DNA of 64,000 nucleotides from a virus, in IMG/VR virus record IMGVR_UViG_3300025141_000026; one strand, written 5' to 3'. A program made the translations under genes and the position numbers. Of this stretch, positions 2,762-61,373 are shown in pieces. Position 1 is the stretch's first letter. Each line of letters begins with the position of its first letter. The notes beneath the pieces are model-generated. The model was not told the origin of the DNA. It saw only the letters and a program-made list of their open reading frames with translations, and made no database searches.

Positions 2762-2787
2762 AGCTCCCCCTAATAATATATAAGTAG

Positions 2788-3183
2788 CTAGCGGGGACTT
2801 CTTTTCTTCATTTCTTTGGTAAGAATATCGGCTGCTTGCTCCCATGTAGAGAATTTGACAATGCCCCTTAAATTCTTGGGGTAGATGGAAACAAATTTAT
2901 GAATGACGATCAATTTCCATGAATTGAAGACCTGTTCATCGATTTGCTTACATGTCTCGATGGTCTCTTCTGGTGTACCGGCGCTGTGCATATGTTGATA
3001 TTTCATCTCTCTCATATATGCCACATCTTCCATGATAAGAATTAATAATTTGAGAGTTTGATTCAGGGCATCCTGTGCAAAATTTATAACTTTGCCATAG
3101 CCGAAAAAAAGACTGAGTGTCATGTGTGTGAATGCCCCGGCAATGAACCATAGAAATTCGGTGGGGATTTGGGATAGATTCAT
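2788..3183 (-). CDS. Hypothetical protein with an N-terminal transmembrane segment
   Basis: AAGGAG RBS 9 nt upstream; hydrophobic N-terminus. Confidence 0.6.
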   Translation of the reverse strand: MNLSQIPTEFLWFIAGAFTHMTLSLFFGYGKVINFAQDALNQTLKLLILIMEDVAYMREMKYQHMHSAGTPEETIETCKQIDEQVFNSWKLIVIHKFVSIYPKNLRGIVKFSTWEQAADILTKEMKKRSPR

Positions 3184-38081: not shown

Positions 38082-39932
38082 TTAATCAACAAGATTGTGA
38101 CAAATAACCAATCCGTACATATCAGGACGTACCATCTTCTTAGCATAGCGTGTCATGACACCCTTACGCGGCACGAAGTCTTCCGTACCAAAGATGGTAG
38201 GAGTGACTTGGAGCGGCACGTATGGAGCGTACACATATCCACTTTCTAAGAAGCTTCCACCCTTGCGTCCAACAAGGATGACGTTTCTGATAAAGTAAGG
38301 ATCGACATAAATGTCAAACTTCTTACTAATCTGACCAACTTTTACAGCACCTGCGGAACCCTTTGGAGTGTCAGCAGCAACGCTTGCGCGGAAGCCACTA
38401 GTGAACTCAAGAATGTTCGCAACTTCTGGGGAACAAACTAAGAAGTTTGCGCCACCACGGAGTGTCTTTCTATGGATTTGAGCAGAAACATCATTGACTG
38501 TTTCGATCAAAGTTTCATACCATTCAGACACAGTACCTGTGAAGTCAGGTGGAGTAGTAGTGTTATCAATCTTGACACCAGATTCTCTGTTCAAGAATTG
38601 ACCCGGACGACGTGACCAGTGAAGAGTTGCAGCGGATGCACCCTTTACAAGATCATTGAGCAACTCACGGTCGATTTCAAGAGCAATTTGCTCAGAAAGG
38701 ATGCTTGTAAGCTCAACTTCTGCATCAAGGTTGTGGTAAGCTTGGAGATCTTGTCCAAGTTCTGGAGTCCACTTAGCCTTGAGCTTTTTAGTCACGGCAG
38801 TCACACTAACGGAATCAACTTTGATGTCGATCTCTGGAATAAGGTCAACTTGATTTCCGTTGAATTCACCAGCGGCAGCGGCTGCACCTTCAAGACCCCA
38901 CGGGGAAGTACCTGCAAGTGCTCCAAGTGCATCAGTACCAGCAACCTCAAATGCATCTGCGCGAGCAAAGGCAACTTGTGCGGTGGTACCGACATTGTTA
39001 AGTGCAGCAGACAGGTTAGTTGTCATTGCAGAAGTACCAGCGGAAGCCGTTCCTTCAAAAACAAGAATAATTGAAGTATCCGTTGTGTTTCCAAGGTCAA
39101 GAGCATTTACAGACTTACCAGCGCTAGCAGCACTACGACCCTTGAGTGTGGTCAAGCGGCGGACTTGGCGTCCCTGCTCCATGTCGCCACTACCGGTGTA
39201 TACAACAGTGATAAGATCGTTGCGATTGAATGCACCTTTAAGGTTTGCACAGGTTGCACTAAGGACAACAACAGACTTTCCTTGAAGATCTGGATCGTAA
39301 TTTACGAGATCGCTCAAGTAAGTAGTTGCGCCACCAAGTGAAGCCGGTGTCAAAGCGTTTTCAGCATCGTCATCAACACCAGACCCAACAACACCTTGGG
39401 CAATTTCGGCTACAGAAGCCAATGCCACGGTTCCCGTTGGGGATGAGTAACCATTGTTAAGCGCATAAAAGCTGCGTTCCGCAGCGGCTGCTGCTTTGTT
39501 TCCAGCACCGCCAAGGTTTACGCCGCCTGTAAGCTGTGCTCCGACAACTCCACCACCGTAAAGTGATTCATTCCGCCCTTGATCCAAGCGAGCATTGCTC
39601 AATGTGAAATCAAGGAAGAAAATGAGTCCCGATGGGAGACTCATTGGTTGAACTGAAATAAGTTCGTTAGCAACCAAGCTACCGAATACACGGCGAACGA
39701 TTGGAAATGCTACAGCAGCGAAGCCTTGAACGTCTCCGTGTGCCATGGATGAACTCTCACGAAGAAGTTCCTTCGCTTGGTTCTCTAAGAGGCGTGACAT
39801 AGACGCCTTTGTGCTATCGTTATCTAAACCTTCAAGAAGCCCGGTCTTTTCCCACTTATCAAGCAGGGCAGTACCTTCTTTCTGGAGGTCACGATTAACA
39901 ATACCTTCTGTTAATTTATCTAAAACTGACAT
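38082..39932 (-). CDS. Major capsid protein (gp23-like)
   Basis: LLENQ, PIVRRVF, VQPMSLPSG, KLKAKWTPELGQDL, EIDRE, YAPYVPL, GVMTRY. Confidence 0.96.
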   Translation of the reverse strand: MSVLDKLTEGIVNRDLQKEGTALLDKWEKTGLLEGLDNDSTKASMSRLLENQAKELLRESSSMAHGDVQGFAAVAFPIVRRVFGSLVANELISVQPMSLPSGLIFFLDFTLSNARLDQGRNESLYGGGVVGAQLTGGVNLGGAGNKAAAAAERSFYALNNGYSSPTGTVALASVAEIAQGVVGSGVDDDAENALTPASLGGATTYLSDLVNYDPDLQGKSVVVLSATCANLKGAFNRNDLITVVYTGSGDMEQGRQVRRLTTLKGRSAASAGKSVNALDLGNTTDTSIILVFEGTASAGTSAMTTNLSAALNNVGTTAQVAFARADAFEVAGTDALGALAGTSPWGLEGAAAAAGEFNGNQVDLIPEIDIKVDSVSVTAVTKKLKAKWTPELGQDLQAYHNLDAEVELTSILSEQIALEIDRELLNDLVKGASAATLHWSRRPGQFLNRESGVKIDNTTTPPDFTGTVSEWYETLIETVNDVSAQIHRKTLRGGANFLVCSPEVANILEFTSGFRASVAADTPKGSAGAVKVGQISKKFDIYVDPYFIRNVILVGRKGGSFLESGYVYAPYVPLQVTPTIFGTEDFVPRKGVMTRYAKKMVRPDMYGLVICHNLVD

Positions 39933-42420: not shown

Positions 42421-42660
42421 TTATCTTCCCCTCTCTAATTGTAATTCTTTTGCCTTTTTATTGGCTACTTCTCTTTCGTGCGCTCTTTTTCGAGCTTGTC
42501 TAATTCTTCTATTTTTATCAGATTTTTTTTCGTGAAACTTGCGTTCCCTAATTTCTTCCATTACTCCGGATTTTTTTACTTTTCTAATAAATCTCTTTAT
42601 CATCCTTTCTGGATGCTCTCCGGGTCTTAAAGTAACTTCTACATTAACTGGTTTAGCCAT
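42421..42660 (-). CDS. rpsU: Ribosomal protein bS21 homologue
   Basis: GEHPERMIKRFIRKVKKSGVMEEIRERKFHEKKS; 79 aa, basic. Confidence 0.85.
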   Translation of the reverse strand: MAKPVNVEVTLRPGEHPERMIKRFIRKVKKSGVMEEIRERKFHEKKSDKNRRIRQARKRAHEREVANKKAKELQLERGR

Positions 42661-43078
42661 TTTTTATTTCTCTCCAAGTGTCGCCAAATATTCCTGCGAG
42701 ATCAGATATATCAACACCGGGGTCGCGTGGATCTACTCCACTTAGTGCCCCTTTTGGGTTTGTTGTTCCAACTTCTCCCGCTGCTGACAGGGGGTTTGTT
42801 CCTTCAAAAACGTTAACCCCGTTCATAGAATCTCTGCCGATTGCATCTAACATTTTTTGTCTCTGCTCTTTTAGGTTTGATAAAGCCTCAGACTCTCTTT
42901 TATTTACAGAGGGCTGTGTAATCTCCTTTTTAGGTTGTTCCACAATTGTCTCTGTAGATGATAACCCCAGAGCAACCTCTGAAATAACTTTGGACAAAAC
43001 GCCATCCTCCAAAAGAGACTCTTGTATGCACTCTTTTACAATGGGTTTTATCAGTCTTTTGAGATCCGATTTTCTCAT
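42653..43078 (-). CDS. Hypothetical head-cluster protein
   Basis: N-terminus MRKSDLKRLIKPIVKECIQE resembles the second leader class. Confidence 0.65.
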   Translation of the reverse strand: MRKSDLKRLIKPIVKECIQESLLEDGVLSKVISEVALGLSSTETIVEQPKKEITQPSVNKRESEALSNLKEQRQKMLDAIGRDSMNGVNVFEGTNPLSAAGEVGTTNPKGALSGVDPRDPGVDISDLAGIFGDTWREIKNG

Positions 43079-43681
43079 TTAGTCCTCCAAGACATAATTC
43101 AAAGCACGATTGATTCTATCTGCTTTCGTAAATATTTGTTTTTCAACGCCTTCCTGCAATCCCATATAAGCGCCGGGTGTTGATGGTTCAGAAACAAAGT
43201 CAAAACAAATGAGTTGAAAATCTTCTTGAACCGTTACGGTGCCATTTGTACCTTCAGATACAGAACCAAGACCTCTAGAGGAAATGCCTAGAGAGACACC
43301 GGAGTCAACCAAAGATCGAAGAACGTTGCCTGATGGGGTATCTAATACTTTGACCTTACCCATGACAGAGTTTCCATCCCACCACACATCTGTAACAAGG
43401 TGGGAAGCGTTCTTAAGATTGATTACGGAATCATCTGGGTGGTCTAATTCACCCAAAGCCCTTCGTTCTTTGACAAGCTTGTCATAGTTTTGCATCTCGC
43501 GACGTAATACCTTTTGAGGATATACTCTGCCATTTCCATTTTGAACTTCAGCCTCTTGTAACTTACCGGTAAGAATCATTCCCCCATTAGATACAAATTT
43601 CTTTTCTTCTTCCGTGAGGAGATCTTGGCAAACACCACCTTCACAAAGTTCATAATATTCTCTCAAAAGTTTCTTTGACAT
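43079..43681 (-). CDS. Prohead protease (gp21-like)
   Basis: NGNGRVYP, GELDHP, ASH, LGISSRGLGS, DFVSEPS. Confidence 0.95.
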   Translation of the reverse strand: MSKKLLREYYELCEGGVCQDLLTEEEKKFVSNGGMILTGKLQEAEVQNGNGRVYPQKVLRREMQNYDKLVKERRALGELDHPDDSVINLKNASHLVTDVWWDGNSVMGKVKVLDTPSGNVLRSLVDSGVSLGISSRGLGSVSEGTNGTVTVQEDFQLICFDFVSEPSTPGAYMGLQEGVEKQIFTKADRINRALNYVLED

Positions 43682-44651: not shown

Positions 44652-45475
44652 TAGTCTTGTATCTCTCTAGCTAAGTTTTGCACTCTCAAGACTTTCTTTA
44701 CCATATCCATTGATACGGGGCTTTCCTTAAAAGACTCAAGAATATTGAAAATTGCTTTGCTCTTTTGAAGCATTTCTGTGTCCTCTGATATTTCTTTTAC
44801 ATCGCTGCTTTCGGAAAGAACATTTTTCAATCTTCCGATTTCCTCATTCAAGTATATGTTCAAATCAAGACCATTGTCTGAAAAGGACATGACATATTTT
44901 TTAAGTAGCTTCTTTTGCTCCTCGTGCAGTTCTGCTGATTCGTATTGCTTATTGTATCGCTCAACAAATTTTTTGATTATTAAATTATCGACCTTGCCGC
45001 TCTTGCTTTCTGTCAATTCATTAGAAGAGGTTAGTGTATCTAGAATTGTAGCCTCTAACAAGACTTTCTTTTTTGGGGACAACGAATCATTGAATATTTG
45101 ATGTATTGTTGCTATGCTTTTATAATTTGGCACGAATTGAGAAAATACATCAGGCGTAAGTTCTTTATTGATTTTATTGATTAGAGCACTTTGCTCTTGA
45201 AATATTTTATCTTTGTCCAATTGATTGTACTGACCCTTTGCCTCATAAATCAATTTTTCAGCAATGTACGGCTCAAGCCCTGAATTTTCTTGTAAGGATT
45301 TATAAATTTCTAATTCTTTTTTCAGGAGGGTGCCTTTTCCAAAATGTTCCTTAACAATCTTGCTGATTTTTATTCCATGATCAGATCTTTTCTGTATGAC
45401 GGATTTTGTCAACTCCCTGACCAAAACCTCAAACAAGAATGCGGTATTTCTTTTTTTATTATGCTTTAGCTTCAT
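44651..45475 (-). CDS. Hypothetical helical protein downstream of portal
   Basis: 274-aa coupled ORF. Confidence 0.7.
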   Translation of the reverse strand: MKLKHNKKRNTAFLFEVLVRELTKSVIQKRSDHGIKISKIVKEHFGKGTLLKKELEIYKSLQENSGLEPYIAEKLIYEAKGQYNQLDKDKIFQEQSALINKINKELTPDVFSQFVPNYKSIATIHQIFNDSLSPKKKVLLEATILDTLTSSNELTESKSGKVDNLIIKKFVERYNKQYESAELHEEQKKLLKKYVMSFSDNGLDLNIYLNEEIGRLKNVLSESSDVKEISEDTEMLQKSKAIFNILESFKESPVSMDMVKKVLRVQNLAREIQD

Positions 45476-47396
45476 TATCTTTGGACTCCAATTCGTTTAT
45501 AAGCTTCTTTATTTCTGTATTTACTTCAAAAACTTTTTTTTCTTCGCTTTCATAATTAGCTTCTCGACCTTCGTAAATTCCTTTTGCAAGTTCAAAACCC
45601 GGAAGAATGTCTCTAACACTTCCAATGCTGTCTCCAGCATATTTACTCTTCATGTTTCTTTTGCGATGCCCAGCAGGGTTTTTACTTATGCGCGGAGTGT
45701 AATGCTTTCCTTTTGATTTAGCAGTTGTGGTCATGGTCCTGCCGCTGTCATCTCTTTTAGCTGGAAGTTCTTCTCCGCCGGCGTCAGGTGTTGCTAAGAG
45801 AACGTCATCTTCTCCACCACCCTCGTCGCCTCCAAGGTCTTCGCCACCTCCAAGATCCTCGTCACCCCCAAGGTCGTCGCCTCCAAGGTCTTCTTCACCA
45901 CCTAAGTCGCCACCCATGTCTCCTCCGCCGCCAGCACCTTCGGCAGCAACAGCCTCACCAGCGGCATCAAGAAGAGCTTGTACTTTTCTGTCGTGGAACA
46001 TTTCTCTCTGGACTCGTAGAAACTCCTCATCAGACAAGTTAAAGATGTTTTGTGCAACCCAACGCTTGCTAAAGAACCCTTCTGTTGCGTTAGAAGCAAT
46101 TTCAAATTTAGTTCTCCAGTGTTCAAGCTCTTGTAACTCAGCGATTCTAGAAGGGTTGTTTAGGTATAGCTTGAAAGAAATAAGATCCTCTTGTCTAAAA
46201 CCGAGGGTATAGAGGTGGATGATGCCTATCTTTTCAAGCTCAGTTATAATTGCTCTTTGTAATCTTTGAATGGTTCTGGCAAAGCGAATATCCTTTTGAG
46301 CCAAAGTTGTTTTATCTTCAGCGCCCTCATCTGAAGTTGTCAGATAAGCAGCAGGAATCTTAATTGCTGAAAAAAGTTTGTCTCTCAGGTACTTTACATC
46401 ATCAATATCTCCTGTGTAGCTTCCTCCAGCCAAAGTTTCTATTTTAGAACTTACGTTTCCTCTCGTTGGTATAAAATAATCTTCCTCAACAGACATTGGA
46501 TTATACCTCAGATCAACTCTACCCGTTGCCGGGTCAACAACTTGGTTACGCTTCATCTGAGTCATCACTTTTTGCATGTATTGCTCGATATCTTGCGGAG
46601 CTATATTGCCAACATCAATGTAAAATACACGGCGTTCGGGGGAGCGAACAATTCGGTAAGCCATCATTGCATCTTCAAGGAGGGTGAGTTGCCTCCAGAT
46701 TCTCCGTGCAGGTTCTAATACTGATGTGCCGTATGGAGCATACTTGTCGTTACCTAAAATCCTGAAATGCCCCATTTGCCAGTTCTCAAATGTGAGACCA
46801 CCCGAGTTCCATTGGTATTGGACATAATTCGGATTTGTTTTATCTTCACCTTCGAGTCTTTCAATTTCAGCAGTTGGCAAACCAATTACATTCGTAATTC
46901 CCATCTTTTCATCAATATCAAGATAAAGAAAGTAATCACCAAACTTGCACATTGTTCTGCACCAGCCGAACAAATTATGATCAATGTTTAGGACATTGTG
47001 GTACAATGTCTCTAGAACGGCTTTGATTTCATCATTTGAACAATCAATACGCAAAAGTTCTTGCAGTTCCGAAGATGTCGTCATTTCATCGGCGTAGATA
47101 TCCATTGCAGAAGCCAACTCGGGCATATATTCCATTTGATCAAAATCAGCGTACCTTTCTGCTCTGCTAATGCTCCCCATTACAGAATTCATTGGATAAC
47201 CACTCAGTGGCTCATAGGAGGCTTTCTTGAACGACATCCCGCTGGCTGATGTGAAGTCATATTTGTTCAACTGTGCCCTGCGAAGTCTACGGGGGGTTTG
47301 AGCACGATAATTTACGATTGGTCCAGAAAAAAGTCTGGTTAATCTTTTGAAAAGTGGAGAATTTGCTTGTCTTGGGTTTTTATGTTGGTCAACCAT
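45459..47396 (-). CDS. Portal protein (gp20-like)
   Basis: LEDAMMAYRIVRSPERRVFYIDVGN, EDYFIP, IETLAGG, DDVKY, DIRFAR. Confidence 0.95.
   Translation of the reverse strand: MVDQHKNPRQANSPLFKRLTRLFSGPIVNYRAQTPRRLRRAQLNKYDFTSASGMSFKKASYEPLSGYPMNSVMGSISRAERYADFDQMEYMPELASAMDIYADEMTTSSELQELLRIDCSNDEIKAVLETLYHNVLNIDHNLFGWCRTMCKFGDYFLYLDIDEKMGITNVIGLPTAEIERLEGEDKTNPNYVQYQWNSGGLTFENWQMGHFRILGNDKYAPYGTSVLEPARRIWRQLTLLEDAMMAYRIVRSPERRVFYIDVGNIAPQDIEQYMQKVMTQMKRNQVVDPATGRVDLRYNPMSVEEDYFIPTRGNVSSKIETLAGGSYTGDIDDVKYLRDKLFSAIKIPAAYLTTSDEGAEDKTTLAQKDIRFARTIQRLQRAIITELEKIGIIHLYTLGFRQEDLISFKLYLNNPSRIAELQELEHWRTKFEIASNATEGFFSKRWVAQNIFNLSDEEFLRVQREMFHDRKVQALLDAAGEAVAAEGAGGGGDMGGDLGGEEDLGGDDLGGDEDLGGGEDLGGDEGGGEDDVLLATPDAGGEELPAKRDDSGRTMTTTAKSKGKHYTPRISKNPAGHRKRNMKSKYAGDSIGSVRDILPGFELAKGIYEGREANYESEEKKVFEVNTEIKKLINELESKDNEAKA
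45815..45930. repeat. Degenerate (DLGGxx)n coding repeat in the portal C-terminal tail
   Basis: GGDMGGDLGGEEDLGGDDLGGDEDLGGGEDLGGDEGGG; boundaries approximate. Confidence 0.7.
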
Positions 47397-51016: not shown

Positions 51017-51928
51017 TTATACTTCTATTTTATCTAGCTTTTCACTTATAAGTTTTAATTTATTTTCTAAATCGGATATCTTTTTATCTTGTTCTTTTAC
51101 GCCCTCGACCAAAAAAGAAATAATGCGTATGTAATCCATACTATTAGCAAATTCAGAGTCGGCTGACCACTCTACAATTTCTGGTAATACTTTTCCGACC
51201 TCTTCTGCAATGAAGCCATAATCCTTTTTCCCTGTGTCCTTCCAATTATAAGAAACTCCATTGAGTTTGTTGAGAGTTCTGATCGGATTGTCTAAAGGTT
51301 CTATATTTTTTTTGAACCTGATAGAAGAATAGGAGACAAAAGCATTCGCCTTGACTTTTCCAGACACGTCGCTCGTGTCCGGTAGGGTTAGCCCATGAGT
51401 GGCAGATGGTGTGCCGATTGCTAAATGCTTGTCTATGTGGATAACCGCTCCGGACAAAACAAGCCCTCCAGTGGAGGAACCTGATATAACTAAAGAGTTT
51501 GTGTCACTGTAAAATATTCTTGCCTCATTGTTTGGACCAAAATTAAATGAACCTGCGGATCCGGTGCTTGTAAACTGAAGTTCTCCTCCAATTTTGAGGG
51601 GGGACGCACCCTCTAAAGTTCCAGCAATTTGAATTGTAGAACCTGACAGCACAATTCCGTTGCTTGACCCGGAAATCACTAGGAAGTCATCGCCATTTTC
51701 ATTATACTCTATGAAGGCATCATCATTGGTTCCAAAGACCAACTTAGTATCATCGGAGATTTTTAAGTCTGTTTCATCAAAGGTGAAAGATGGGACACCA
51801 CGAGAGGCTCCAGATCGATTGTACTGTATTTGCTCACTATCTCCACCCGCAGCAGTGCTGTCAAAAGCTTGCTCTTTTCTACGAATGTAATTTTGAAGCT
51901 GTCCAAGGGTTCTAAATCTTCTAGCCAT
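51017..51928 (-). CDS. Tail fibre/spike with C-terminal intramolecular chaperone (peptidase S74)
   Basis: SSIRFKKNI, GFIAEEV...PEIV, MDY, terminal coiled coil. Confidence 0.8.
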   Translation of the reverse strand: MARRFRTLGQLQNYIRRKEQAFDSTAAGGDSEQIQYNRSGASRGVPSFTFDETDLKISDDTKLVFGTNDDAFIEYNENGDDFLVISGSSNGIVLSGSTIQIAGTLEGASPLKIGGELQFTSTGSAGSFNFGPNNEARIFYSDTNSLVISGSSTGGLVLSGAVIHIDKHLAIGTPSATHGLTLPDTSDVSGKVKANAFVSYSSIRFKKNIEPLDNPIRTLNKLNGVSYNWKDTGKKDYGFIAEEVGKVLPEIVEWSADSEFANSMDYIRIISFLVEGVKEQDKKISDLENKLKLISEKLDKIEV

Positions 51929-52364
51929 CGTTCTTTATCTCCACCGCGATTGCAAACACGGATATAGATATAATTATGCCGCCAAGTACCCCACCAGCCA
52001 ACCACCAGTGAGAATAATCATTGGGCGATTCAAGGGCTAGCTCTTGAAGTCTGCCAATTTCTTCATCTTTTATGGTTATAAGTTGGTCGTATCTTTTTGT
52101 TGCAGACTTCAATTTTATGTCGCTAATCTGTAAATCAAGCTCCAGTTGTGCGGATAGCAGCTTTATTTCTCTGTCTATCTCTAAGCGACATTCTTCTACG
52201 GTGTATTTCTTATCGGTAAGAACTTTAGCTGCTGCCGTTGGGTCCATTAGAACACCGGTAAAAGGTGCAGGATCTCCTTTTTTCAATTCAGTTATAACTC
52301 CCTCTTGTGCCCAAGCAGGGAAAGCAAAGAGTATAACTAAAAATATGGATAGTAGTTGTTTCAT
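51921..52364 (-). CDS. Exported coiled-coil protein with C-terminal TM (spanin-like candidate)
   Basis: Signal peptide ending AWA; coiled coil; C-terminal hydrophobic helix. Confidence 0.55.
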   Translation of the reverse strand: MKQLLSIFLVILFAFPAWAQEGVITELKKGDPAPFTGVLMDPTAAAKVLTDKKYTVEECRLEIDREIKLLSAQLELDLQISDIKLKSATKRYDQLITIKDEEIGRLQELALESPNDYSHWWLAGGVLGGIIISISVFAIAVEIKNDG

Positions 52365-52876
52365 TTTAGCCTCCACCGCCATTTTCCTTTTCCATCTTCA
52401 TCGTTTCCATCTTCATCGCTGGTGTCTATTTGCACTGCCCGTTTTTCTTTTTCTAGTCTCGCCCAAACGCCTTTGCCGTCTTCTGTCTGTGCTTTGTCGC
52501 TATACAGGCTTCCTTTGCCGAGGACTTCCATAACTTTTTCATACAAATCAGTAGCATAAAAGCCACCACCCTTTACTTTGCGAACATTACCAACAGCATA
52601 ACTTTCTCTAAATGGGGCAACGCCTAGATAAGCAATAGGGATGTCTTCTTTATTCACAACAAAAAAGAGCACATCGCCTTTGGGCAACTCAAAACTTACC
52701 AACTGGTTTCCTTCCCACTCTCCAAGATCTTTTCTCTCACCTTTACTTGGGGCGTGTTCTTTATAAAAGTAATCAAGCGACTTTTGTATTTCTTCCTGAG
52801 AAGTAGCAATAGTATCAAAAGCCTCTACCTCGTCTATGAACCTTTTCCAGTTTTCAAGTAGTTGTTTCATTTTAGC
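52351..52876. repeat. 20-bp perfect direct repeat pair (52351-52370, 52857-52876) flanking one gene
   Basis: agtagttgtttcattttagc at both positions. Confidence 0.9.
52361..52870 (-). CDS. Leader-bearing cargo 7: GNAT-like acetyltransferase
   Basis: Leader MKQLLENWKRFIDE; KGGGFYATDLY...LYSD..QT..G..VW resembles the GNAT acetyl-CoA loop. Confidence 0.55.
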   Translation of the reverse strand: MKQLLENWKRFIDEVEAFDTIATSQEEIQKSLDYFYKEHAPSKGERKDLGEWEGNQLVSFELPKGDVLFFVVNKEDIPIAYLGVAPFRESYAVGNVRKVKGGGFYATDLYEKVMEVLGKGSLYSDKAQTEDGKGVWARLEKEKRAVQIDTSDEDGNDEDGKGKWRWRLK

Positions 52877-53154
52877 ATTTCTCTAAACTTAGGATCGTAA
52901 AGCAATCCATCAAGTTGCGATGAGTATCCCTTATCAATAAGAAGATCAATCAAAGAATCAACATCCATTTCGTTTTTTGATGCGACGGAAGCAAAATAAT
53001 CTTTGAGTTGACCAAACAACTCTTCCTCTTCCACTTCTCCGCTATAAAAGCGGTCAACCAACTCATCCGTAATCACACCAAGTTCTTGCGGAGTGTTAGC
53101 ACCAAGTCTAATCTCATTTATGTATTTGTTCCAGTTTTCAAGTATTAGTTTCAT
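52867..53154 (-). CDS. Leader-bearing cargo 6: unknown acidic domain
   Basis: Leader MKLILENWNKYINE. Confidence 0.65.
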   Translation of the reverse strand: MKLILENWNKYINEIRLGANTPQELGVITDELVDRFYSGEVEEEELFGQLKDYFASVASKNEMDVDSLIDLLIDKGYSSQLDGLLYDPKFREMLK

Positions 53155-53783
53155 TTTTTTACTAACTCCTTATTTACGATATCATAGCCTTCCACAACGC
53201 CCACATTCACATAGTCAAAGCCGTCGAGGAGGCATATTTTTTGTGGTCCGAACTTGCCGCCCAACTTATAGTATGTGCTGACCTGCCCTACCACCTCTGT
53301 GAATAGCGCTGGTATTGCTTTTTCTGGAAGGGTTTTTAGATGCGTGTTGTATGCTGCTAACTCTCCCCTTAGATCAAACTCGGTTCCACGAGAACCAATC
53401 GCTTGGATGTGGGACATATAATCGTGGATTGCTCTAAACTTTGCGTTTGTAATCTCATCAAAAATGGCGTGATCTGCGTCAATAGTGGCGACCCTCATAG
53501 TGCCCGTGCTCTTAACATCTTTCCTTAGTTCGTCTGCGCTTTCATATGGATGGTAATCAACGAACTCAACATCTACCTTAGACTGGATTTGATTGAACAT
53601 CTTCTCAACAAAAGGAGTTAATGCTTCGTAGTGGGGGACTGCTCTTTGTTCAAAATCAGGAGCAGCAAGGTAGGCAGTACCCACCAAATCAGCATACTTA
53701 GTCCAACCGTTCTCTCCGGGTTTAAGCATTAGCTTCTCGTTGATTGCGATGAACTTTCGCCATTCTGTTAGTAGTTCTTTCAT
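53151..53783 (-). CDS. Leader-bearing cargo 5: putative metal-binding enzyme
   Basis: Leader MKELLTEWRKFIAINE; FRAIHDYMSH...GE..AY..H...TE..GQ. Confidence 0.6.
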   Translation of the reverse strand: MKELLTEWRKFIAINEKLMLKPGENGWTKYADLVGTAYLAAPDFEQRAVPHYEALTPFVEKMFNQIQSKVDVEFVDYHPYESADELRKDVKSTGTMRVATIDADHAIFDEITNAKFRAIHDYMSHIQAIGSRGTEFDLRGELAAYNTHLKTLPEKAIPALFTEVVGQVSTYYKLGGKFGPQKICLLDGFDYVNVGVVEGYDIVNKELVKK

Positions 53784-54190
53784 CTATATTCCTCGCTCCA
53801 ATCAAATCTATTTTCACCGCTATAAACATGTCTAAGATAGTTACTGTGGGAGCCACTGTATACATAAGCATCAAAATAGTCTTCGCCATTCAGCCACTTT
53901 TGAAAGATCCTGTGATTGCCGTCATCAATAATTAATTGTTGTTTGTCTGTATTATAAAAAAGAACTGGTAAGCCTTCTGTCATACTAAGTTCTTCCTTTC
54001 TTACATCCCCTATTATGTGCTCGCCTTGGGATTTAAGCATACTGAGTGATTTCATTGGGATATCCTTGACTAAGACCCCTTCTTCTCCCTCTTCTTCGTC
54101 AAACTCTTCTTCACCACGGATGACTTCATCGGGAAGAAAATCTAAATTCTCTTTCAAAAAGTTTCGCCACTCTGTTAGTATCTCTTTCAT
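53780..54190 (-). CDS. Leader-bearing cargo 4: ParB/sulfiredoxin-like domain
   Basis: Leader MKEILTEWRNFLKE; LPVL...IIDDGNHR. Confidence 0.6.
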   Translation of the reverse strand: MKEILTEWRNFLKENLDFLPDEVIRGEEEFDEEEGEEGVLVKDIPMKSLSMLKSQGEHIIGDVRKEELSMTEGLPVLFYNTDKQQLIIDDGNHRIFQKWLNGEDYFDAYVYSGSHSNYLRHVYSGENRFDWSEEYR

Positions 54191-54783
54191 TAGTAGTCCT
54201 CTGGGTTTTCATCTGTGATGACAACATTTTTGTTTGTCTTTGCCTCAACCCAATCTCTCACAAAGTCGTCAACATCTTTAATCTCAGACATTCTTGTTTC
54301 AGGAGAAAGCCCCCCTAAATACTTTCTATAATCGCTGTCGATCTCATCCATCACTTTCGGGTCTATTGTGTCTGATAGGTGTGGATCTACATCAAGAAGA
54401 TCCAGAACAATGTTCTCTGGACGGAAAAAGCTTTTTCTATCTTTTGGCTCTTTGCTATCGATCCAATTAAACAACCTTATAAGCAGGGCGTTTCCAGATT
54501 CTTTTGTTTTCTTTGCTGCCTTTTTTGCACCTCTTGACTTTGCGGCGACATTGATCGCGGACACGGCTGGACTAAGTTGGGCGATGCCACTAAGTTGGGC
54601 GACACCTTCAACCCCAACTGCCTTGAACATCTCTTCTTTTGCTTGTTGATCTTCTACAAAATCAGACATGCCCATATAAAGATCACTAAACCGAGCGATT
54701 GTCCAATCTTTTGGATACCTTTCAGCAAAAGATTTTCTTTCTTCCTCTATGAATTTTCTCCATTCTGTTAGTAGTTCTTTCAT
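54190..54783 (-). CDS. Leader-bearing cargo 3: unknown domain
   Basis: Leader MKELLTEWRKFIEE. Confidence 0.65.
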   Translation of the reverse strand: MKELLTEWRKFIEEERKSFAERYPKDWTIARFSDLYMGMSDFVEDQQAKEEMFKAVGVEGVAQLSGIAQLSPAVSAINVAAKSRGAKKAAKKTKESGNALLIRLFNWIDSKEPKDRKSFFRPENIVLDLLDVDPHLSDTIDPKVMDEIDSDYRKYLGGLSPETRMSEIKDVDDFVRDWVEAKTNKNVVITDENPEDY

Positions 54784-55229
54784 TTCTTTCTCCTCTAAAA
54801 CTTATGCAAGATTGGGGCAAACTGTCTCAATGCTTCTGGTGATCTGCCTACGGTTAGGATCCTCTTTGCCAAGATTTGTCCGGCTTCCTCATCTTGCCCT
54901 TCTTCAACCCACTTCTGAAAAGACTTCTCAATCCACTCACCAAAGGTAGCCATATCATCAGCAAACTGCACAGGGTCATCAACACCCTGAAACGACCGTT
55001 TTAGTTGTCTGGCTTTTGCACTAACGGTTCCCATTTCTCTACTCCAACTGGAGCCTTCGTACCTGTCATAATCTATTTGTGTGCCGCCATCAATCGCATT
55101 CGTGATGGTGTCTGCTGCCTCCAATGTTCCGGCGATATCCTCTTCAGAGAATTCAGCAGAGTATGATTCATTTATAAACTTTCGCCATTCTGTTAGTAGT
55201 TCTTTCATTCTTTATCCTCTAAAACTTAT
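54760..55229. repeat. ~45-bp near-perfect direct repeat pair (54760-54805, 55185-55229) flanking one gene
   Basis: ccattctgttagtagttctttcatt(t)cttt[c/a]tcctctaaaacttat; spans upstream gene end, stop, RBS and leader. Confidence 0.9.
54795..55208 (-). CDS. Leader-bearing cargo 2: unknown domain
   Basis: Leader MKELLTEWRKFINE. Confidence 0.65.
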   Translation of the reverse strand: MKELLTEWRKFINESYSAEFSEEDIAGTLEAADTITNAIDGGTQIDYDRYEGSSWSREMGTVSAKARQLKRSFQGVDDPVQFADDMATFGEWIEKSFQKWVEEGQDEEAGQILAKRILTVGRSPEALRQFAPILHKF

Positions 55230-55722
55230 CCAGTTGTGCTCCCAAGGCTACAAGCATGTTGCCTGTCTCATCTTCTGCGATCCGTCGCAAAATCTTATGT
55301 GCCTTTGATTGCAGAATATTTTCATAATCTTCTGTATTGTTTATCTCTATCATCTCATCCACATTTCTTTCCAGCCAATCAACAAAGGTTTTTAGTGCCT
55401 TTGCTTTGTCCTCGTCTTCTTCTTGGACTTCGTGGTTCTCAAACCAGATGGAAGTGTAGTCAAGTATTTTACGCATCTCTGGTCTAACATACCTCTCTCC
55501 TTCTCCGGGCGAACGCTTAGTCGGCGCAAAGAACCTGAGATCCTTGGCTTCATCTGGGTATAGAAATGCATACATGGTGAAGACTTTATTGAGTACAGCG
55601 TCCATTAGATTATCCAATGTCGTATCTGGTTTGGCAAAGAAATCTCTGGACGACTGTTCTCTATCATAGACATCCTCGTATTCATTTACAAACTTTCGCC
55701 ACTCTGTTAATAGTTCTTTCAT
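55219..55722 (-). CDS. Leader-bearing cargo 1: unknown domain
   Basis: Leader MKELLTEWRKFVNE. Confidence 0.65.
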   Translation of the reverse strand: MKELLTEWRKFVNEYEDVYDREQSSRDFFAKPDTTLDNLMDAVLNKVFTMYAFLYPDEAKDLRFFAPTKRSPGEGERYVRPEMRKILDYTSIWFENHEVQEEDEDKAKALKTFVDWLERNVDEMIEINNTEDYENILQSKAHKILRRIAEDETGNMLVALGAQLDKF

Positions 55723-56114
55723 CCTTTATCCTCCGCCCAGAGTTGTCTCATATGGTCAGGAATTGGGACTGGCTCTCCATCTCCATCAATACGAACAAAA
55801 GTAATCTGTGTTGAGCAAACTGTCTTCTGTGTGCCATTGTAAACACTATGCCTTCTGGCTTCTAGGTTTATCACAACAGACGTGTTGCCCATTTTCTCGA
55901 CTTCGCCATAGATCTTAATAATTTGAGTTGGTCTTGCCGGTGCAGTAAATACAACTTCTGACATGTGAACGGTAACCATTCTTGGTGTACCACATATTTC
56001 TGATGCAAAAGCAACTCCTGCCTCATCTAGCCAAGCTAGCATCTGACCTCCGAAGAGATTACCATGATAGCCTAAGTGCTGAGTCATGACTTTATGTGTC
56101 GATATAAGTTTCAT
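55719..56114 (-). CDS. Acyl-CoA thioesterase (HotDog fold, YciA-like)
   Basis: HGNLFGGQMLAWLDEAG, MVTV, F..P, GNTS, TFVRID..G.P.P. Confidence 0.85.
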   Translation of the reverse strand: MKLISTHKVMTQHLGYHGNLFGGQMLAWLDEAGVAFASEICGTPRMVTVHMSEVVFTAPARPTQIIKIYGEVEKMGNTSVVINLEARRHSVYNGTQKTVCSTQITFVRIDGDGEPVPIPDHMRQLWAEDKG

Positions 56115-56308
56115 TTTGATCCCTTCTTATTGTTTTTGCGTATGTTTTTAATAACCGCTTTGTTATAATCTACATTTTTCGATACTGATTCTACCTTTGC
56201 TTCAAGCGAATCTAATCTGTATATTGTATTATAGTAGAAACCACCCATAAGAGCAACGATGCCCCCTATTGTAATTATGGTTTTGATATCCAAAGTAACC
56301 TCTTTCAT
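56111..56308 (-). CDS. Small membrane-anchored coiled-coil protein
   Basis: One TM followed by RLDSLEAKVE. Confidence 0.55.
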   Translation of the reverse strand: MKEVTLDIKTIITIGGIVALMGGFYYNTIYRLDSLEAKVESVSKNVDYNKAVIKNIRKNNKKGSK

Positions 56309-56706
56309 TCGCTTCCTCCCTCAACATGCACAATGCCAAACTTGTCTGATATCAGCTTTGCGAGGTTGCTGGGATCTTCACTGTTCTCAGCCACTAGCTT
56401 TTTGACTTCTTCTCTTTTCTTGTCAGTAAGCTCTTCTTTCTTGCCCTCGTATTCTTTTTCTATTTTCGCAATGATTTCATGGTACTTATCAAGAGCTTCA
56501 TCCCTTAGAGCTATCTCTTCTGCGTGGTTATCATTTAGCGCATCAATTTGTTTCTTATGGCTATCCTCTTTCACCTTCAAAACTTCTTTGACTTTATCGG
56601 CACGTCCCTTAAAAAACACCCATACACCGATGGCATATACAATGCCAACTAATATTTTCCAGTATTTTACAACAAAGTCCTTTGCTTTTTTCAGAAAACT
56701 AATCAT
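56305..56706 (-). CDS. Inner-membrane spanin-like protein
   Basis: N-terminal TM followed by a long coiled coil; next to a holin-like gene. Confidence 0.55.
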   Translation of the reverse strand: MISFLKKAKDFVVKYWKILVGIVYAIGVWVFFKGRADKVKEVLKVKEDSHKKQIDALNDNHAEEIALRDEALDKYHEIIAKIEKEYEGKKEELTDKKREEVKKLVAENSEDPSNLAKLISDKFGIVHVEGGSE

Positions 56707-56863
56707 CTTTTTTCTTTAAGTAGTATTGAACAGAAGCCAAGCCACACAGGATACCCGATATAAGCCACAACATTATATTGTAAGGTTCATTCAACAAGAA
56801 CCCTACGCCAAAATATGCTAGCCCAGCGGTGAAAATACAGAGTGGCTTGTCTCTACATACCAT
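56699..56863 (-). CDS. 54-aa two-TM protein (below the ORF-track cut-off)
   Basis: MVCRDKPLCIFTAGLAYFGVGFLLNEPYNIMLWLISGILCGLASVQYYLKKKDD; fills the gap and overlaps both neighbours. Confidence 0.55.
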   Translation of the reverse strand: MVCRDKPLCIFTAGLAYFGVGFLLNEPYNIMLWLISGILCGLASVQYYLKKKDD

Positions 56864-57038
56864 GCTTCCAAGCCTTCGCCAAATCTACAGCGCCTTGGGA
56901 GCCAATATAAACCAAGCTGATTGCAACCCAGTCACTCGAACTAAGATTGGCAAAAGCCAGCAAGCCTGTGGCTGTACCCCATACCATTAATTTTCTTGAT
57001 ATTAGTTTAGATAACAACTTGTCTAATGAGTGTCTCAT
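56853..57038 (-). CDS. Holin-like protein
   Basis: SRKL plus two short TMs plus YIGSQGAVD; GGAGG RBS. Confidence 0.6.
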   Translation of the reverse strand: MRHSLDKLLSKLISRKLMVWGTATGLLAFANLSSSDWVAISLVYIGSQGAVDLAKAWKHGM

Positions 57039-57065
57039 ATCTATTTCCTCCGTTGAGGTAATTAG

Positions 57066-60000
57066 TTACTGAGATACAAAAGCGAATCCATCATTTTTCT
57101 CAATTTCAATAGTGGTATCAGCAATGTCCTTCAGGCTATCGACATGCGAGATCAACAAAACTATCTGATAGTAGTTCTTGACCATATCCACAATACGAAC
57201 AAAACCTTCCATGTTTTCCGCATCAAGGGCTGTTGCTGGTTCGTCAAGAATAAATAGGTTGGATTTAGGCAATGACGACACAGAAAGCAGCGCTAGTCTG
57301 ATTGCCATTGCAGCAATTGTTTTCTCAGCGCCAGATCCCATCTCAATAGGTCGTGGGTCATGCTTGGGGTGCTTGATAAAGATGTCAAGCTTGTTGCCAT
57401 CATTTTCAAAGAAGACCTCAAAGTCAACAACGTTAGCCAACACCTTTGAAATCTCATCATTGATGATTGGCAACCTCTTCTTAATAATATCATACGAGAT
57501 GCCATTAGAGTGCATGCAACGCATAAACAAATCATAAGCAGTATACTTGGTTCTTAGATCCTCCAAGTTTGCCTGTTGCTCAACCAAGTTGTTGAGCCGT
57601 TGTTCCAAAGAGCCATGCTGCTTATAAAGTTCTAAGATTTCGTTTCTGCATTCTTCGTATTCTTGTTTTTCTCTCTCCATTCTTTCTGTAGCCGCTCTTT
57701 TCTCTCCTGAAAGAATTTCCAGATTTTCAATAACTTCTTTGTTCTCTTCATATTCATTGATCTTTGCCTCCAGTTCTTTTATTTCAACTTCTAAATTTGT
57801 TTTTTTGGACTTGCTCTTCTCTATGTCAAGCTCAATACGAGCCATCTCATTTGAGAGATTGTTCTTCTTCTCGACAACCTTGTTGTATTTGGCTAAATGG
57901 CTGTCCACAATATCTGGCTGTAGGGTGCCGATATCCTTTTCTATTTTCTCCTTGTTGTTGTTGAGGAGGGTAATCTTCTTCTTGCTTTCTGGAAGAAGTT
58001 TTTTATGTGTATAAGCGTCTCGTATAAACCTACAATGAGAAAACTCAGAACCACAAGGGACTTCTGATAAGAGTGCGACTTTCTTTTCAATTCCTTCTTG
58101 CTCCCTTTCCTCTATACTTATTTCTGAAATGATATTATCGAGATCTTTTCCCTTGTCATTAATAAGTTCTTTTTTAGTTTCTAGTTCATCAATATCAAAG
58201 TTATCCAAAAACTGAATTATCTTTTGGTAATGGTCTAGCTTTTGTTTGTGCTGATCCTTCTTTTCGGATATGTCAATGTCAGCGATTTGTAGTTCGTTGG
58301 ACTTGATTTCTTTATCCTCCACGACCTTTACAATATTTATGATGCTTGCTGGCATTGACTCAATCTTTTTTGTCAAGGCAGTAATTTCATTGCGTATCTC
58401 TTCAATCTGGACTTTGTATGCGGCACAGGCTTTCTTTTGTTCTTCAGTTCTTCCAGCATTGTCGTTTAACAATAGTTGAGCAGCCTTGATGTCCTCATCA
58501 TAGTCTTTGCCCTCTAGTGTTTTCAGAGCACCTCGAAGATCTGATGCATCATCTTTTGCTAGCTTGAACTTCTTTTCAAAGATATCCAAATCCAAAAACT
58601 TTGCTAAGATTTCTTTACGTTTTGTAGATCCTTCATTGATGTATGAAAGAGATCCCATCTGAGATGACATAGAGGTCATTAGGAAGTCATCCATTGTCCC
58701 CAAGACCTTTTTGATATTTTTGTCGGTCTCATTTCTTGTGGTGCCATTTAGAACATCTATATCTTGTGTAATCAAGTTTTGTTTTGTAAACTCAGTCTTT
58801 GTTTTAGCTTCAAGCGTCTCTTCGCCCTTCAGCTTTTTGAGATACTTCTCTGACTCTCTATGGATGCTGTACGTGTCATCCCCAACAGATATCTCAACAT
58901 CTGCGGAACACATTTGCTTGTTCTGGTTGATTATGTTGAGATTCTTTCTCTCGTTTTTAGATGTGGAATTATACATCCCATAAAGCAGTCCGTCGATGAT
59001 GGAAGACTTACCAGAGAAGTTCTTGCCAAAAACTCCCACGACCCCATTCAACTTGGTGAAATCAATGGAGTTTCCTTCTCCATAATTGAACAGGTTATCC
59101 CAAGAAAACTTTCTTAGATTCCAATTTACGTTCCTTGTGATCTCCTCTTCTTCTTCAGCAACGGCATTGTATTTTCTATTAAGCTCATAAACCTTTTCTA
59201 AGGTCTGATCGTTAGCTTCATAGTCTTTGAGATACTCATCAATGAACTCTTCCTGAACAGCTATGTCACGAAGGTCCTCTTTTTTCAAGGTGTGGGTCAT
59301 ATGGTCAACGCTAGAGTTGCCACTCGCACGATTCAAGAATGTGATTGACTCTGGCTTGAACTTGGATTTAGCAACATCAATAGCCTTTCTCATCACATCG
59401 AGAGGAAGGTTATTGTTTGTAGCCAAACGAAGTCTTGAGCCGTTTGGAAATGATAGAGATCTAGGGATCTTGCCCTTCGGTGTCAAGTCGATTGTAATAA
59501 ACGGCTTAGGATTCAAAAGCACATGGTGCTTGCATGTATAGTTATCCTTGTCCTTTACATCCCATACCAGATATCCCTTGTCGTTCGTTTCTCCAAAGTT
59601 TTGCTGGACTGTTGATCCCGCATAGCGGATCTTACCTTTTGCATCGAGGGTTTGGTTGGTCTTGTGGATATCCCCAAGGAAAGCATAATCAAAATTATTA
59701 AAAATAGAAATGTCATAGTCGCCATAGTCCATTGTCCATCCGATGTCGGTTTGGCAACCGCTGATGGAACCGTGATAGAGAGCAATATTTACTCTATCAT
59801 AATTAGTTGGCTCGACCCAATTATCGGTATCAAACACAGACAAAACATTCAAAGCAAAATTGTCATTTATGACAGTTTCGCCTGACTCTTTAAGTAAATG
59901 TATGCTTGGGTGCGCCAGCGCTTCCACGATTGGGGTGATGGCATCTTGACGACTACTGTTCTTTAGATTGCCATCGTGGTTTCCCAAGATAATATAAGTT

Positions 60001-60215
60001 GGCGCAATGTCACCTAGACTGCGAAAGAAGTCGGTTGCCATCTCCACAAACTCTGGTGAGATCTGGGTCTTGGTGTGGGCAATGTCGCCACAATGGATAA
60101 TACAATCCACCTTTTGTTTTCTCAGCTTTTTGTACATCTGTTTGAATACTTCTTTATATTCAAAGTGATATTTCAGATTGCGGATATGGGTATCCGCTAT
60201 ATGAGCAAATCTCAT
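57066..60215 (-). CDS. SbcD-SbcC (Mre11-Rad50, gp47-gp46) fusion nuclease/ATPase
   Basis: ADTH, GD, GNHD, GDIH; then GKNFSGKSS, coiled coil, SGAE signature, LDEP, ISH in one ORF. Confidence 0.9.
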   Translation of the reverse strand: MRFAHIADTHIRNLKYHFEYKEVFKQMYKKLRKQKVDCIIHCGDIAHTKTQISPEFVEMATDFFRSLGDIAPTYIILGNHDGNLKNSSRQDAITPIVEALAHPSIHLLKESGETVINDNFALNVLSVFDTDNWVEPTNYDRVNIALYHGSISGCQTDIGWTMDYGDYDISIFNNFDYAFLGDIHKTNQTLDAKGKIRYAGSTVQQNFGETNDKGYLVWDVKDKDNYTCKHHVLLNPKPFITIDLTPKGKIPRSLSFPNGSRLRLATNNNLPLDVMRKAIDVAKSKFKPESITFLNRASGNSSVDHMTHTLKKEDLRDIAVQEEFIDEYLKDYEANDQTLEKVYELNRKYNAVAEEEEEITRNVNWNLRKFSWDNLFNYGEGNSIDFTKLNGVVGVFGKNFSGKSSIIDGLLYGMYNSTSKNERKNLNIINQNKQMCSADVEISVGDDTYSIHRESEKYLKKLKGEETLEAKTKTEFTKQNLITQDIDVLNGTTRNETDKNIKKVLGTMDDFLMTSMSSQMGSLSYINEGSTKRKEILAKFLDLDIFEKKFKLAKDDASDLRGALKTLEGKDYDEDIKAAQLLLNDNAGRTEEQKKACAAYKVQIEEIRNEITALTKKIESMPASIINIVKVVEDKEIKSNELQIADIDISEKKDQHKQKLDHYQKIIQFLDNFDIDELETKKELINDKGKDLDNIISEISIEEREQEGIEKKVALLSEVPCGSEFSHCRFIRDAYTHKKLLPESKKKITLLNNNKEKIEKDIGTLQPDIVDSHLAKYNKVVEKKNNLSNEMARIELDIEKSKSKKTNLEVEIKELEAKINEYEENKEVIENLEILSGEKRAATERMEREKQEYEECRNEILELYKQHGSLEQRLNNLVEQQANLEDLRTKYTAYDLFMRCMHSNGISYDIIKKRLPIINDEISKVLANVVDFEVFFENDGNKLDIFIKHPKHDPRPIEMGSGAEKTIAAMAIRLALLSVSSLPKSNLFILDEPATALDAENMEGFVRIVDMVKNYYQIVLLISHVDSLKDIADTTIEIEKNDGFAFVSQ

Positions 60216-60812: not shown

Positions 60813-60989
60813 TTATTTTTCGTCTTTTGCGTCTAGGTATGCGGCGACAGCCATTTGTTGCCTCTTCTTTTTGCCTTTACCTTTGAATTGCGGTGCCTTA
60901 GATTTGTAGAAGTCATCCACATATGCACCTGCTCCGTCAGATGGCTTTAGTTTTTCTCCAAGCCCCAACTGAGCTTCTTCCTCTTCTGG
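60813..60989 (-). other. Open in-frame extension after the TGA of 60990..61373 (58 codons to TAA)
   Basis: PEEEEAQLGLGEKLKPSDGAGAYVDDFYKSKAPQFKGKGKKKRQQMAVAAYLDAKDEK; fills an otherwise empty 180-nt gap. Confidence 0.7.
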
Positions 60990-61373
60990 TCACTGTTCTT
61001 GTAAATCGTCATCTTCGTTTACTGTTCTTGGGGAATCTAAAGTTTCACCGCTAGTAACATCTTTGACAACAGACATAAGAAACTCAACTGCTTTATCGTG
61101 CATGTCTTGCGGATCTTTTGAAACAGGTTCTCCAGTACCAGCATATGTTTGAGCTACATCTGTTGGCGTAGTCATTTCTTGGTATGCTGCACCAATAGCT
61201 GCTTCAAGATTTTGAATAGTCTCTACGTCAATACTTTCGTCCAATTGTTCGTCTTGTTGTTCTAACTCTTCTTGGACTTCTTCTCCAAACATCTCACCAG
61301 CTTCTTCGTTTGTAAGAACAACTTGAAGCTCTTCTCTAATGATTTGTTTAAGTCTTGCTTTTGTCATTTTCAT
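60990..61373 (-). CDS. Acidic protein with second-class leader MKMTKARLKQIIREE
   Basis: AAGGAG RBS; leader shared with 61610..61723. Confidence 0.65.
   Translation of the reverse strand: MKMTKARLKQIIREELQVVLTNEEAGEMFGEEVQEELEQQDEQLDESIDVETIQNLEAAIGAAYQEMTTPTDVAQTYAGTGEPVSKDPQDMHDKAVEFLMSVVKDVTSGETLDSPRTVNEDDDLQEQ

Follow-up and report, generated by a model that had tools for sequence, protein, structure and literature searches.

What lets seven consecutive genes with unlike products begin in nearly the same way? This question is raised by a gene array in the 64,000-nucleotide (nt) DNA stretch of IMG/VR virus record IMGVR_UViG_3300025141_000026 (the whole stretch is called the window below). 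Each of the seven genes, which run on the minus strand from 55722 to 52361, opens with a ribosome-binding site (RBS) and a short leader peptide that recur from gene to gene. An earlier note on this DNA had proposed that the genes are cassettes that enter and leave by crossover in the RBS-plus-leader DNA, and our analysis supports this proposal. RBS-plus-leader DNA of about 20-55 nt, present at every junction, is the site of cassette deletion, insertion, replacement and movement, and such exchange is seen among strains, from one diverged phage backbone to another and from one to the other of two genomic sites. It is likely, in our judgement, that the locus is a hypervariable internal-protein-like array in a distant T4-superfamily phage, whose cassettes move by recombination in this DNA. 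In each cassette, the RBS would be followed by an amphipathic leader of 14-16 residues with [LIVM]-x-E at its end, and then by a cargo that is acidic and unrelated to the others.

Seven genes share an RBS and a coding leader

The genes of the array overlap or lie 10-12 nt apart, and the leader is found on all seven, with the consensus M-K-x-[LI]-[LI]-x-x-W-x-x-[FY]-[ILV]-x-E. Two subtypes were distinguished, MKE[LI]LTEWR[KN]F in five genes and MK[QL][LI]LENW in the other two. At the DNA level, the repeated unit comprises the RBS together with the opening ~14 codons (MKELLTEWRKFINE or MKQLLENW…), and a 24-nt leader pattern occurs five times, compared with none in 100 shuffles.

Behind the predicted cut, the seven cargos, named here by family (F numbers, Table 1), are all acidic, with isoelectric points of 4.2-5.5. 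No Pfam family was found for any of the seven cargo bodies, and Pfam and PHROGs together gave no function for six of the seven, F1 matching only phrog_3170, a family without assigned function. Foldseek returned no match for F1. For F25, it returned weak but uniformly GNAT acetyltransferase matches (E about 2e-3, TM score 0.4-0.5); the label GNAT-like given to this 169-aa protein by the earlier note therefore stands as a weak fold match and lacks Pfam support. Within F3, an exact 14-nt direct repeat with a spacing of 18 nt (54571-54602) encodes a duplicated peptide, G(V/I)AQLS.

The junctions between these genes are direct repeats. A perfect 20-bp repeat flanks F25 on both sides, for which we estimate a chance expectation of about 1e-5 such pairs in 4.6 kb. 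A second repeat of ~45 bp (54760-54805 and 55185-55229) has one mismatch and one 1-nt indel, extends from ATAAGTTTTAGAGGA through the leader TGG, and spans the K and F codons that end the upstream gene, its stop codon, the RBS and the first eight leader codons. The earlier note had described both repeats, including the 20-bp copy that starts the signal-peptide gene, and had matched the junction at 55722 to that at 55208; its coordinates were confirmed, the RBS unit GAGGATAAAGRATG being exact at 55720 and 55206. Within the 64-kb window, the exact unit occurs only at cassette junctions such as these, indicating that it is not the general RBS of the phage. At 55722, the reading frame of the upstream thioesterase gene enters the RBS unit (EDKG*) and stops on the TGA of the ATGA overlap. 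One statement of the earlier note had to be given up, namely that two unrelated genes both end in KF*: the C-terminal ~70 residues of F2 and F4 are homologous (hhalign probability 96.9%), so this ending is partly inherited. The last codons and the RBS at the ends of F2 and F4 are far better conserved than the rest of their common domain.

The junctions contain no inverted repeats and no attC-like or hairpin structure, and their DNA folds no better than shuffled sequence (z 0.2-1.0). Promoter and terminator scans of the array gave matches not above those in shuffles, and a T4 late-promoter search found nothing specific in the array. No recombinase or integrase was found among the ~20 genes scanned in and around the array (51017-60215).

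Whole cassettes are gained, lost and replaced between strains

Strain-level variants on related loci (L numbers) were recovered by exact-protein look-ups, of which that with F4 gave no match. L054 is colinear with the window at 99.4% identity. In L059 and L057, an identical F24 protein is directly followed by the signal-peptide gene, and F25 is precisely absent. Both loci keep exactly one copy of the 20-bp repeat, and in each of them this copy is precisely the stretch of 20 nt in which the two blocks of homology to the window overlap; the flanks of L059 are 99.5% (left) and 96.2% (right) identical to the window. A third allele was found in L060, in which F24 is followed by an unrelated F9-type cassette and homology to the window stops 30 nt into the leader. 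Similarly, L026 differs from the near-identical L025, L027 and L028 by one whole 140-aa cassette bracketed by ATGAAACAACTACT, one copy of which stays at the empty site.

Variation on a larger scale was found between the two conserved border genes of the region (Table 1). At the right border, homology restarts at 52364/52365 in more than 15 loci, and the first 14 nt of the signal-peptide gene equal the start of the MKQLL leader. The site is empty in L033, L034 and L035, where the 133-aa membrane-protein gene abuts the signal-peptide gene; from zero in these loci, the gene content between the borders rises to nine or more, and gene order varies among relatives as well. L003 carries homologs of F3, F4 and F2 in reverse order, and two F12 paralogues stand side by side in L029. 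The first 41 loci alone yielded 25 mutually unalignable cargo families, of which F1 is the only one that recurs regularly, being present in most relatives with a leader subtype that differs between genomes. The same cargo was also found with different leader subtypes in different genomes, and the leaders of cargo-unrelated pairs are 74% identical (nt) within a locus and 67% between loci. That leaders are partly genome-specific and that one cargo may carry several leader subtypes both fit an exchange in which the tag already in place is retained.

Homologues of the F25 cargo (40% identity) were also seen in a different kind of phage contig (L044:4170-4670, L045:4917-5423 and L046:273-779), where the N-terminus MH..KKMLIR[DE]IISEG replaces the WR leader, so that the same cargo has a different N-terminus. 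Cassette proteins that are otherwise unrelated, one F1 allele among them, have at their C-terminus a portable basic module, (D/E)ERCQKGYKTHPKRKTKKMYGKTYRNCVKAEE (L023:7400-7497, L024:7410-7510, L021:3600-3723, L042:4717, L043:8770 and L050:8767), often with a tiny Cys-rich open reading frame (ORF) downstream; the module was not found in the window.

Cassettes move between diverged backbones and between two sites

Near-identical cassettes were found in otherwise diverged genomes: blocks with 97-99% identity to the window are embedded in backbones of only 65-75% identity, and some lie at a second genomic site. Homology of these blocks stops either at the RBS/ATG or some 41 nt inside the following leader. 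The F23-F1-F24 block of L057 is 99.2% identical to the window, compared with only 69% and 74.5% for the flanking genes, and has one edge at the F23 start (54191, ATG) and the other within the 20-bp repeat. L055 also breaks at 54191, with an upstream backbone 73% identical. Overall, the F23 start has four different upstream neighbours (in the window and L062, L055, L057 and L058). Codons 3-4 of the F23 leader are mosaic (GAGATA, GAACTA or GAGATC) among alleles otherwise 98-99% identical, indicating that the joints lie inside the leader.

The second site lies behind a ClpP-like gene. F2 is 94-98% identical (nt) to copies behind this gene in L001, L003, L005 and L067 (95-98% in L001, L005 and L067), and F4 is 91-95% identical (nt) to its counterparts in L003 and L005. 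The backbones around the F2 copies are 66-81% identical, and the ClpP-like gene before F2, homologous in the relatives to window 2060-2845, matches that of the window with an identity of only 65% (nt) in L067 and about 54% (aa) in L005. The F2 homology tract opens with the RBS unit at 55733 and closes at 55167, 41 nt inside the leader of the following gene, and the cargos differ beyond this point; L063, from the same sample as L054, departs from the window sequence at 55167 too.

Leader cassettes were seen downstream of the ClpP-like gene (PF00574) in L001, L002, L003, L005 and L067, accompanied by a GroEL gene in L001 and L003. The corresponding site of the window (1155-2845, minus strand) has an Amidase_2 / peptidoglycan-binding gene and no cassette-junction remnant. 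The placement of cassettes right behind a ClpP-like gene in four relatives raises the idea that the leader serves as a ClpP degron. This is only remotely possible, because 50 kb separate the array of the window from its ClpP gene and because the gp21 motif is present in the leader.

Breakpoints concentrate at leaders

The internal ends of homology blocks at least 85% identical were collected as block ends. Within -30..+50 nt of a leader ATG lie 72 of 171 such ends, compared with about 4 expected at random positions, and a block end was found near 48 of 75 leader gene starts (64%) and 45 of 377 other gene starts (12%; odds ratio 13). Part of this enrichment is inherent in the material: the loci were selected because they carry arrays and are related to one another, and where genes are closely packed in an array, each boundary between them is a leader. 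Kinship and the choice of loci inflate the breakpoint counts, which thus describe a trend and not a rate. Individual crossover points fall in the RBS, at the ATG or at +20 to +47 nt. The leaders are also alike at silent positions, in a comparison with codon bias that the earlier note had suggested: among the five TEW-type leaders, synonymous codons are identical at 55 of 82 comparable positions, compared with 33.5 +/- 5 expected from the codon usage of the window, 7 of 20,000 simulation runs reaching 55, although the preference for A-ending codons near gene starts could explain part of this identity.

Several further observations weigh against crossover in the leader as the full account of the locus. 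No leader is present at the left border of the variable region or on two of the resident genes, and crossovers were also seen at leaderless gene boundaries. L023 and L024 exchange the leader together with the N-terminal two-thirds of one gene (from a type-1 to a type-2 leader); since the two have a 33-residue C-terminal module in common, the right-hand break lies inside the gene body. All comparison sequences are metagenome contigs, among which rare chimeras are possible. As for the internal-protein side of the reading, the leader is not alignably homologous to MKTYQEFIAE of T4, and capsid packaging and cleavage are putative. The earlier note had staked its proposal on variable gene content and on breakpoints inside the repeats. 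Content and order do vary strongly among relatives; the breakpoints concentrate at leaders, with some inside gene bodies.

Alternative explanations

It could be argued that the repeats are kept only for expression or protein function, as a strong RBS, ATGA translational coupling, an unstructured A-rich start and an N-terminal helix, and that the turnover is generic recombination at any gene boundary of a hyperplastic region, the leader being no special crossover site. This would suit the leaderless genes and leaderless left border of the variable region, the one exchange that breaks inside a gene body, the favoured leader codons, all of which end in A, and the unstructured junction DNA, which is as expected for translation starts. 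However, homology tracts stop at the 3' edge of the next leader, about +41 nt, and not at the stop codon or the ATG; the empty site keeps exactly one repeat copy; leader alleles form mosaics over a span of 15 nt; block ends are in excess at leader starts over other gene starts by the odds ratio given above; and the exact RBS unit is confined to cassette junctions. We therefore regard this explanation as unlikely. We find it very improbable that the genes are tandem paralogues diverged beyond recognition, with an N-terminus under purifying selection and with relatives that differ by differential loss from a large ancestral array. The homologous C-terminal domain of F2 and F4 and the adjacent F12 paralogues of L029 would agree with such descent, whereas the 25 unalignable families, the F25 homologues without the leader in the unrelated phage contexts of L044-L046, and cassettes 95-99% identical inside backbones 65-80% identical, as well as at a second locus, do not. 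Near-identical cassettes in diverged backbones and at a second locus require recent lateral exchange, not loss alone.

Even less credible is the suspicion that the junction variants are chimeric metagenome assemblies in which co-occurring phages were joined at short repeats. The relatives are all short-read contigs, and L054 and L063, from one sample (ERZ27249081), split in or just after F2. Nevertheless, the repeats of 14-55 nt are shorter than the final assembly k (k141 in contig names), the junction of F24 with the signal-peptide gene recurs in independent samples and assemblers (ENA ERZ27249108 and JGI 3300037634) with different backbones, and the boundaries of the F2 tract recur in five independent contigs. 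Least credence of all is given to a dedicated site-specific system, an integron-like recombinase or a homing nuclease, that recognises the junction unit. Precise and repeated cassette boundaries are what such a system would produce, but the scanned genes around the array include no recombinase, the junctions have neither inverted repeats nor better folding than shuffled DNA, and the crossover points are scattered over the RBS, the ATG and the following leader codons, as homology-driven exchange predicts.

Recombination in RBS-plus-leader DNA thus remains the explanation that we prefer, and it would proceed by ordinary homologous recombination with the phage's own T4-type machinery. Cassettes could be exchanged during co-infection by a double crossover in two leaders, or could be lost within a genome or concatemer by deletion between direct repeats. 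Since the crossover falls in leader codons, each cargo that is exchanged would keep its reading frame with the tag already present.

Possible function of the leader

The leader is likely, by analogy, to act in the manner of the T4 capsid-targeting sequence, loading the cargo into the prohead and being cut after its Glu by the gp21-type protease, so that the cargo would be injected. In T4, a 10-residue leader ending in I-A-E targets internal proteins to the prohead (PMC9026906, PMC3012670), and the cleavage motif of gp21 is L/I-x-E (PMC9026906). A motif [LIVM]-x-E with its Glu at residues 13-17 was found in 87 of 91 distinct leaders, compared with 120 of 647 other proteins (19%). The leader and MKTYQEFIAE of T4 have in common only an M-K start, helical character and an F-[IV]-x-E end, peptides of this size being too short for statistical alignment, and AlphaFold modelled the leader as a detached, low-confidence helix. 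Since T4 Ip1-3 all inhibit GmrSD-type restriction enzymes (PMC12373910), the cargos here may by analogy serve in counter-defence or takeover after injection.

A second leader, MK[IL]TKxxLKQIIKEE, which ends in I-x-E, was seen in the same arrays and on window gene 60990-61373. This type-2-leader gene (MKMTKARLKQIIREE; 60813-61373, minus strand) has an in-frame TGA stop followed by 58 open codons. A single 282-aa ORF (L036:425-1273) matches both parts, with 87% identity over residues 1-121 and 79% over residues 183-230; in the window, the middle ~60 residues are missing and the TGA stands at that junction. The 141-aa gene at 42653-43078 (minus strand), beside the S77 protease gene, has a start, MRKSDLKRLIKPIVKE, that resembles the type-2 leader, and several [LI]-x-E sites; its product may be a core or scaffold protein with a common targeting helix.

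Phage and genomic setting

Judged by its head genes, the source of the window is a distant T4-superfamily member. Among 50,697 phage records, none matches its Gp23 capsid protein with more than 51% identity; those of an uncultured huge phage, Flavobacterium phage immuto, Microcystis phage Mel-JY01 and Rhodothermus RM378 come nearest, and a DNA search of the array locus against the same records gave 0 matches. A fused recombination nuclease gene adjoins the array. Inside the variable region, the resident thioesterase occurs in unrelated contexts in other phages. The features are listed in Table 1.

Table 1. Features of the array, its junctions and its surroundings in the window
Feature	Position	Strand	Remarks
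Window, source of the array	64 kb	-	all genes on the minus strand
Mre11/Rad50-like (gp47-gp46-type) recombination nuclease, fused	57066..60215	-	adjoins the array
Membrane-protein gene, 133 aa	56305..56706	-	conserved left border; homology to L036, L015, L023 and L031 stops at 56297-56303
65-aa transmembrane protein and 4HBT thioesterase	55719..56308	-	leaderless; inside the variable region
Junction repeat, thioesterase end / F2 leader	55681..55733	-	homology to L001, L003, L005 and L067 begins at 55733
F2, 167 aa	55219..55722	-	leader MKELLTEWRKFVNE
Junction repeat, F2 end / RBS / F4 leader	55167..55232	-	homology to L001, L063 and L067 stops at 55167
F4, 137 aa	54795..55208	-	leader MKELLTEWRKFINE; C-terminal domain paralogous to that of F2
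Junction repeat, F4 end / RBS / F3 leader	54742..54808	-	F4 homology block with L003 stops at 54742
F3, 197 aa	54190..54783	-	leader MKELLTEWRKFIEE
F23, 136 aa	53780..54190	-	leader MKEILTEWRNFLKE; start 54190/54191 is a recurrent recombination joint
F1, 210 aa	53151..53783	-	phrog_3170
F24, 95 aa	52867..53154	-	leader MKLILENWNKYINE; three downstream alleles by exact-protein look-up
20-bp repeat, left copy	52857..52876	-	F24 end and F25 leader start
F25, 169 aa	52361..52870	-	leader MKQLLENWKRFIDE; weakly GNAT-like fold
20-bp repeat, right copy	52351..52370	-	F25 end, RBS and first 14 nt of the signal-peptide gene
Signal-peptide/transmembrane gene, 147 aa, MKQLLSIF...	51921..52364	-	conserved right border; ATG at 52364
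Portal_T4 portal	45459-47396	-	match 2e-76
gp21-type prohead protease (Peptidase_S77)	43079..43681	-	presumed leader processor; match 1.6e-33
Gp23 capsid protein	38082-39932	-	match 4e-71

Comparison with known systems

In the T-even phages, a conserved 5' segment with RBS and leader reportedly precedes each ORF of the internal-protein (ip) loci. These loci are polymorphic, and their capsid-targeting sequence is processed by gp21 (Repoila et al. 1994, as related in PMC3012670 and PMC12373910). The earlier note had named them as its precedent, and with the stem-loop cassettes described below they are the nearest known counterparts: here, too, unrelated small proteins have in common only an N-terminal leader that ends in a head-protease motif, a gp21-type S77 protease and a T4-type head module are encoded, and the loci are hotspots that vary in number, order and identity among relatives. 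Different from the T-even loci, the leader here is longer and of another sequence (MKELLTEWRKFINE compared with MKTYQEFIAE), the arrays hold more genes (7 here and up to 9 or more in L052), two leader types are interchangeable and the same cassettes occupy two genomic sites; moreover, the lineage is far from Tevenvirinae (capsid identity <=51%).

Modular shuffling in T4-type phages has also been described for promoter-early stem-loop (PeSL) cassettes (Arbiol et al. 2010, PMC2839356; PMC4122927), for which mini-circles were demonstrated (PMC2839356; PMC4122927); their authors drew the comparison with integrons and found no dedicated recombinase (PMC2839356). In both systems, short repeats beside non-essential ORFs in hyperplastic regions are substrates for general phage recombination, and close relatives differ by indels or replacements with crossovers inside the repeated unit. 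However, PeSLs are non-coding hairpins made of a promoter and a terminator, whereas the unit here is an RBS with a coding leader and shows no hairpin or promoter signal. Because the repeat is an RBS with a coding leader, exchange preserves the protein tag and the reading frame, unlike in PeSL cassettes.

The earlier note had spoken of an integrase-free integron-like array. With an integron, the locus has in common a one-directional array of promoterless, unrelated cassettes and the gain or loss of whole units at repeated boundaries, and the scanned genes indeed include no integrase. It differs in having no IntI among these genes, no attC-type folded sites and no attI/Pc, and in its boundaries, which are coding and within which the crossover position varies, so that the analogy is one of function only. 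Given junctions without inverted repeats or folding, the lack of a promoter signal in the array, and no recombinase among the scanned genes, the array is neither an integron nor a PeSL system.

Significance

The principle is already known, from polymorphic T-even ip loci behind a conserved leader and from PeSL shuffling, which has been likened to integrons (PMC2839356). What is new is the evidence, at the level of breakpoints and strains and in a far-removed lineage, that crossover takes place in the coding leader itself, and that cassettes pass from one to the other of two loci and from backbone to diverged backbone. This gives a view, breakpoint by breakpoint and in natural populations, of how a phage maintains a changeable set of tagged, probably injected proteins, and it extends the picture drawn from T-even internal proteins and PeSL cassettes to a distant, environmentally abundant lineage. 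It also explains why metagenome assemblies break at such arrays.

More tentatively, the RBS-plus-leader may be a lineage-wide, in-frame docking site, through which any cargo, once tagged, could spread by simple homologous recombination to all tagged loci of all co-infecting phages with a compatible tag. If so, these phages would draw on a common, fast-moving pool of capsid-delivered effectors, comparable to an integron pool and working without a recombinase, possibly by way of excised circles with one repeat. For uncultured T4-like phages, the leader offers a simple search rule for candidate injected effectors and anti-defence proteins, and it points to natural packaging tags with which phages beyond those of E. 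coli might be loaded with cargo.

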